Virus record (IMG/VR): IMGVR_UViG_2671180673_000015
Origin: a virus
Lineage: Duplodnaviria; Heunggongvirae; Uroviricota; Caudoviricetes
Length of the DNA: 31,239 nt
Strand: one strand, 5' to 3'
Shown here piece by piece: positions 14,295 through 14,692 of this stretch. How positions within the stretch are numbered: the first letter of the stretch is position 1; the number at the start of each line of letters is the position of its first letter. The notes beneath the pieces were generated by a model. That model was not told the origin of the DNA and did not search any database. It saw nothing but the letters and a program-made list of their open reading frames with translations. The position numbers were made by a program, and so were the translations under genes.

Positions 14295-14692
14295 GCAGAA
14301 ACAGGCTCTGCAGGCCCGGCGTCCTCTGCCTGTTCAGGGGCATTATTCACCACAAACTCAGACATTCCGGACAGACGTAACACCACGTTTTCAGCCTGAG
14401 CAATTGCCTCCGTGGGCCAGGTGGTAAGCACTTCCTGCTCAATCTGCGTAATGGCTTCATTCATGGACGGCAGCTTTGTCTTCTGTGGATGGTTATGCCA
14501 CAGAGACATCGCCACCAGAAACGCCCCGCCTCTGATAAGCGCCTCTACAGACACCTGCAGGTTGCCACTGGATTCAGCCTTTTTTTCCTGCTATTTCAAC
14601 CAGGCAAGATGCTCAATACGCTGCAGGGCTGACAGTTCAGAAAGCGTGACGGTCACGCCGTTATGTTCAAATGATTCGGTTTTCAGGAACAT
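14270..14692 (-). CDS. G: Tail assembly chaperone G, interrupted by an in-frame TAG at codon 34 (14591-14593); possibly a pseudogene or amber allele
   Basis: ATG at 14692 gives MFLKTESFEHNGVTVTLSELSALQRIEHLAWLK then TAG; the same frame continues as ...VSVEALIRGGAFLVAMSLWHNHPQK...KCSTVS to the stop at 14270 (lambda gpG-like). Confidence 0.7.

Follow-up and report, generated by a model that had tools for sequence, protein, structure and literature searches.

In the 31,239-nucleotide stretch of DNA analysed here, which derives from a lambda-like prophage of Escherichia coli and which we call the window, the gene of the tail assembly chaperone G is interrupted at its codon 34 by an in-frame amber (TAG) codon, and we propose, with a probability that we put at roughly 0.8, that a genuine spontaneous point mutation changed the GAG codon for Glu34 into TAG and inactivated the gene, as a consequence of which the prophage should fail at making tails alone. 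The genes of the window follow the lambda order on the minus strand, Nu1-A-W-B-C-D-E-FI-FII-Z-U-V-G-T-H-M-L-K-I-J-lom-tail fibres, and its closest full-length relative is the prophage of Escherichia coli strain 582, which adjoins bioA-ybhB.

The amber codon in gene G

Gene G is located between the major tail protein and tape measure genes, in the order V, G, T, H, and the features of this region are as follows.

14270..14692, minus strand: gene G (tail assembly chaperone), 140 codons plus TGA, broken at codon 34
14591..14593, minus strand: codon 34 of G, TAG amber, reading CTA on the plus strand
14591..14692, minus strand: stub reading frame of G, 33 codons, annotated on public contigs as a gene of 33 aa
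14701..14704, minus strand: Shine-Dalgarno sequence GGAG, 8 nt 5' of the G start, read directly from the sequence
14580..14586, minus strand: run of seven A (A7) in codons 36-38, in phase A AAA AAG, just past the amber
14288..14294, minus strand: programmed -1 slip site G GGA AAG, the same as that of lambda
13854..14288, minus strand: T reading frame, -1 relative to G, expressed solely as the G-T fusion
11300..13861, minus strand: tape measure gene H, client of gpG, intact save two N bases
14708..15448, minus strand: major tail protein gene V, product recruited by the T domain, intact

Read from the ATG at 14692, G gives 33 sense codons, MFLKTESFEHNGVTVTLSELSALQRIEHLAWLK, followed by TAG at 14593..14591, and past this stop the same frame reads QEKKAESSGNLQVSVEALIRGG..., crosses GGGAAAG at 14294..14288 and ends at TGA (14272..14270). 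Reading this frame on the minus strand confirmed the in-frame TAG reported by the initial annotation, whose start coordinate, codon number, peptide and slip site were all found to be correct, in agreement with the Pfam match. In fact, with codon 34 restored the whole of G matches PF06894 (Phage_TAC_2, the family of the lambda chaperone G) over profile positions 1-125 of 126 (E = 8e-53), and the stub and the part downstream of the amber match the same family separately, over positions 1-33 and 49-125, respectively, therefore the frame assignment is right. The T frame, which has no start of its own, is full length (99.3% identical to T of strain 582) and matches PF06223, the minor tail protein T family (E = 2e-14), and the G-T fusion could be translated across the slip site. 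An uninterrupted frame able to give both gpG and gpGT is no longer present, being broken by the TAG at codon 34, and the change from GAG to TAG places a UAG where an essential gene had a sense codon, as in an amber (sus) mutation. Judged by its sequence, G is a member of PF06894 by descent and a pseudogene in its present form. Upstream of G, the mechanically called V reading frame starts at an ATG at 15478 (256 aa), and the annotated start of its homologues corresponds to the ATG at 15448 (246 aa); the former start makes V overlap the end of U and is probably not the one in use.

Occurrence of the same allele in other assemblies

The exact 33-residue stub was looked up in an index of genes called on public assemblies and is recorded on nine public contigs. 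TAG stands at codon 34 in six contigs, namely L008 (ERZ27270008), L009 (ERZ27249605), L010 (SRR30549455), L011 (SRR30349736, present in three samples), L012 (SRR25477886) and L014 (ERZ27280808). Over the available length, G in L008 to L012 is otherwise the same as in the window, and L014 shows two differing bases, both at its contig end. The stub matches of L013 and L015 were discarded as contig-end truncations, the former reading GA at the codon concerned and the latter stopping just before it. Since the same TAG is found in six independently assembled contigs from different ENA/SRA samples, it is not an error of the window assembly, and the allele is real.

The initial annotation had offered a base-call error as an alternative, given the many N in the sequence, and this was rejected. 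The view that the TAG is an error of sequencing or assembly in a draft of low quality, the true codon being GAG, could draw on the 40 Ns of the window, on the fact that a single base is changed and on the lack of TAG at this position in any complete genome; nevertheless, we consider it very improbable, not only due to the presence of the identical allele in six contigs obtained from other samples through other pipelines, but also because about 29 kb of other coding sequence shows neither frameshift nor stop. Accordingly, when 37 proteins of the strain 582 prophage were compared with the window by tblastn, the 36 others were full length, with no stop and no frameshift, and the sole defects in other genes were X residues arising from Ns. 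These Ns are also not random low quality: every one is a single position, all lie within 1174-24070 with clusters at 10056-10236, 18831-19467 and 20385-21342, and 27 of the 39 that are covered by at least two relatives fall on known polymorphic sites that differ between prophage types (genes K, C and B), to be compared with an overall divergence of about 2.5%. Evidently the assembler wrote N where reads disagreed, probably because the consensus merged reads of another, similar lambdoid prophage or of more than one strain, and position 14593 was called as a definite base.

Ancestral codon and age of the lesion

A 601-nt query around G found a related region in 3,689 of 5,426 complete E. coli genomes, the best matches being 99.8% identical, that is, with one mismatch. 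Codon 34 is GAG (Glu) in all five aligned close relatives, and the G genes of E. coli O22:H8 strain 154 and of DLI.6n differ from that of the window at this codon alone over 423 nt, the window protein being 99% identical to the intact G of O22:H8 154. The mutated base is C to A at plus-strand position 14593, which corresponds to G to T at position 100 of G on the coding strand, and since this is a single substitution in an otherwise identical gene, chance is not at issue. From 17800 to 13758 the window shows three differences from O22:H8 154, the amber included; so few differences, together with the full length of the other genes, argue for a recent and isolated lesion, and the sequence comparisons thus indicate that the G amber is a recent, single knockout. 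The alignment with lambda G that had been suggested as a check in the initial annotation shows Arg at position 34 in lambda, where the GAG of the relatives encodes Glu. Residue 34 lies inside a variable segment, as expected for a random hit and not for a designed site.

When a 61-nt query centred on the TAG was used, matches were obtained in 138 complete genomes (149 places), all at 98.4% identity, equivalent to one mismatch; the exact TAG allele is thus present in none of the 138 complete E. coli genomes carrying this G variant, and likewise in neither of the two sequenced phages carrying it. Exact-pattern scans for the allele gave no match in genome_contigs, JGI metagenome_contigs or IMG/VR viral_contigs, and it surfaced solely via the exact-protein index. 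Full-length proteins of this G variant occur on more than 500-750 contigs and broken forms on about 6-20. By this distribution the TAG is a rare derived allele and not a conserved recoding signal. In the same window, Rz ends at a TAG that is used as a normal stop.

Prophage backgrounds of the allele

Three of the six contigs (L010 to L012) are the same as the window except at N positions, and L009 differs from it at 15 sites in 11.7 kb. The contig L008 carries M, L and I of the strain 582 type at 100% identity, whereas the versions of the window are 77-80% identical, and its other structural genes are intact; it is therefore an intermediate that combines the FI-to-G segment of the window with strain-582-type M, L and I. 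The V of contig L014 is divergent. Provided that none of these metagenome contigs is a chimera, the sequences imply that the TAG allele has survived at least one module exchange, which can occur via recombination with a resident defective prophage or via continued transmission; the former also yields mosaics, with no need of transmission (PMC3945230). The bacterial lineages carrying the allele have been sampled repeatedly, and we infer that it is inherited vertically in them. In the window itself, I, L and M (8956-11303) are just 77-80% identical to those of strain 582, and J, lom, A, D, W and the lysis-Q region are 99-100% identical, a pattern by which the structural module is a mosaic.

The window also contains the lysis genes and Q, in a module that includes iss and a gene for an ompC-like porin. 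Both iss (25157-25447), encoding a bor-like serum survival lipoprotein, and the ompC-like porin gene (27225-28304) are intact and 100% identical to those of strain 582, and lom (4749-5345) is intact and 98.5% identical. Such intact cargo genes fit retention of the prophage by the host irrespective of virion-making. An IS21 element occupies 29900-31239 in the nin region, with a complete istA and an istB cut by the window end, and is separated by 148 nt from a DUF1364 gene; exactly equal spacing is found in strain 582, therefore the two prophages owe it to common descent. A contig break within IS21 is the probable reason for the window ending there. The lesions tallied in the window are the amber in G and this one IS21, the window ending before the early region, and the prophage is defective in the sense that an inactivating lesion is present in a gene essential for virion production.

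Other lesions in the same G variant

A look-up of the 81-residue reading frame chosen by gene callers past the break, a search that sees only lesions before codon 60, found further broken G records. In L021 (2585-2689) codon 35 is changed from CAG to TAG (Q35am), in addition to A30P, and in L017 (9825-9971), L020, L022, L023 and L024 the A7 run at codons 36-38 has lost one base (A7 to A6). Three independent lesions (E34am, Q35am and A7 to A6) are thereby found within five codons. A mutational or selective hot spot was considered as an explanation and set aside, since the density of targets accounts for the clustering: of the 23 single-base changes by which codons 1-59 can become a stop, 10 fall in codons 31-40, as does the sole homopolymer run of at least 5 bases, and the probability obtained for the two ambers is about 0.09-0.12.

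In the intact variant the A7 run stands in phase, with codons GAA AAA AAG. The A AAA AAG at 14580-14586, which we take to be the same heptamer in the same phase as the dnaX -1 slip site, could cause low-level premature frameshifting even in wild-type G. Two of the records retrieved show split genes. The 94-aa reading frame from GTG 14554 led to the metagenome scaffold L007 (ERZ28634141 scaffold_4561), in which codon 34 is GAG and a 10-N gap at 9990-10010 makes gene callers split G into proteins of 43 aa and 94 aa; this record was rejected as an artefact. In the related prophage of L017 (GCA_045573325.1, JBIGOX010000001.1, 4400879-4421124), A, W, B, C, Z, U, G, H and J are all split, which reflects either heavy decay or long-read homopolymer indel errors; the splits of Z, G and H recur in DRR275266, hence at least some of them appear to be real.

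Consequences for tail assembly and possible rescue

We hypothesize that ribosomes would start normally at the ATG at 14692 and that RF1 would release the nascent chain at codon 34, leaving a stub of 33 residues. The G-T slip site comes 100 codons after the amber and, since T has no start of its own, neither gpG nor gpGT is expected to be made, in line with the initial annotation, which had placed the amber upstream of the slip site in a lambda-type G and predicted the loss of both products. G and GT are both essential and are needed at a ratio of about 30:1, with G binding the tape measure protein and the T domain recruiting the tube protein (PMC5009743). In the absence of gpG and gpGT, the tape measure protein H would not be kept soluble and the tube protein V would not be recruited, and induction of the prophage would lead to DNA-filled heads and lysis, with no tailed infectious particles produced by itself. 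These consequences for assembly are those anticipated from the genetics of lambda and of the lactococcal phage TP901-1; in the latter, a stop engineered in gpG resulted in capsids and aggregates and in no infectivity (PMC4493119). The UAG is followed by C at +4, which has been associated with less efficient termination (PMC5289835), and a little full-length G may be made by readthrough.

We regard as highly unlikely a designed bypass of the stop, in which programmed readthrough or a downstream restart would yield a functional product. This reading could appeal to the weak termination context of UAG followed by C, to the in-frame starts found downstream (GTG 14554, GTG 14515 and ATG 14509, at codons 47, 60 and 62, respectively) and to the choice of the 81-aa or 94-aa reading frame by gene callers. 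Nevertheless, the stop is not conserved, GAG being found in all relatives, and the downstream starts lack a convincing Shine-Dalgarno sequence; a product restarted there would be devoid of residues 1-46 or 1-59, would cover positions 49-125 of the PF06894 profile alone and would lose the 30 N-terminal residues that are identical in lambda and in this variant. Moreover, the adjacent independent knockouts (Q35am and A7 to A6) point to a segment simply hit by mutation.

A different possibility, to which we give a small but appreciable chance, is that the amber is real and the phage still transmissible, because the host has a suppressor tRNA or a lambdoid helper supplies gpG, gpGT or finished tails, in which case the element would be a natural conditional-lethal or helper-dependent phage. 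The TAG occurs in the window and in L008, two mosaics in which no other structural gene is broken, and this would be explained if the allele belonged to a still-spreading phage lineage in which it is kept by helper lambdoid prophages or amber-suppressing hosts, a specific proposal that we find doubtful and slightly less likely than the general one. Helpers would often be at hand, as the median number of lambda-like G regions per genome that has any is two, with a maximum of eight, and the Ns, being placed where K, C and B vary from one prophage type to another, suggest a second similar prophage in the source of the window; in addition, defective O157 prophages have been found to be packaged and transferred via interactions between prophages (PMC2669165). 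Given the variability of residue 34 (Glu or Arg), a Gln, Tyr or Ser inserted there by a suppressor is likely to be tolerated. On the other hand, the allele is rare, being absent from the complete genomes and phages with this variant, no tRNA gene was found when a suppressor tRNA was sought in the window, L008 and L014 are metagenome k-mer assemblies and might be chimeras of two co-resident prophages, and recombination with a resident defective prophage gives mosaics in the absence of transmission (PMC3945230). If transmission with helpers or in suppressor hosts were true, it would reveal something new on how lambdoid phages residing in one host depend on each other. We also considered, and rejected, that loss of G was selected as a means to evade a sensor of tail assembly chaperones of the Avs17 type (PMC12803255), as the window gives no evidence of it and a prophage would have no obvious benefit from it.

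We therefore return to a spontaneous Glu34 amber that inactivated G as the preferred reading. The statement in the initial annotation that tails could be made only if the host suppresses the amber is upheld in its main point, the inability of the prophage to build tails alone, and has to be widened in the other, given that a co-resident lambdoid prophage is also a possible source of rescue. G and T of the window are best annotated as a pair of pseudogenes, and the prophage as probably lacking the ability to form tails by itself, though its structural module otherwise looks complete; predictors of prophage intactness that count genes would call it intact. The exact look-up of a truncated product in public assemblies can tell a genuine allele from a miscalled base even when no reads are at hand. 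The G amber would represent an early, single-hit stage of prophage decay, in which the cargo genes iss, the ompC-like porin gene and lom have not yet been affected.

Comparison with known systems

The locus closely resembles G/G-T of lambda, with G in the same position between V and H, the same T frame and an identical slip site with identical flanks, and the G proteins are 83% identical, the first 30 residues being the same in both. In contrast to lambda G, the window copy is mosaic in residues 31-52 and, due to the stop at codon 34, should yield neither product. The sus (amber) G mutants of lambda are conditional-lethal tail mutants obtained in the laboratory, which produce heads without tails in non-suppressing hosts and are rescued by suppressors. 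These mutants and the window share an amber in G upstream of the slip site, but the allele of the window is a natural mutation of a resident prophage and has been recovered from several samples of environmental or clinical origin. Likewise, the gpG::Ter mutant of TP901-1 has a stop in the chaperone gene upstream of a GGGAAAG slip site, and its aggregates were proposed to be the tape measure protein (PMC4493119), although this is another phage in another host and its stop was engineered and not natural.

The prophage pool of O157 Sakai (PMC2669165) provides a parallel at the level of the whole element, as its members are likewise lambdoid and chromosomal, carry point lesions or IS insertions, keep their cargo and may interact with other prophages. 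Nevertheless, most of them seemed to carry multiple genetic defects (PMC2669165), whereas in the window one structural-gene lesion and one IS21 are found. The kind of event described here is already known: the amber in G corresponds, in nature, to the G amber mutants obtained with lambda in the laboratory, and prophage decay routinely involves such a step.
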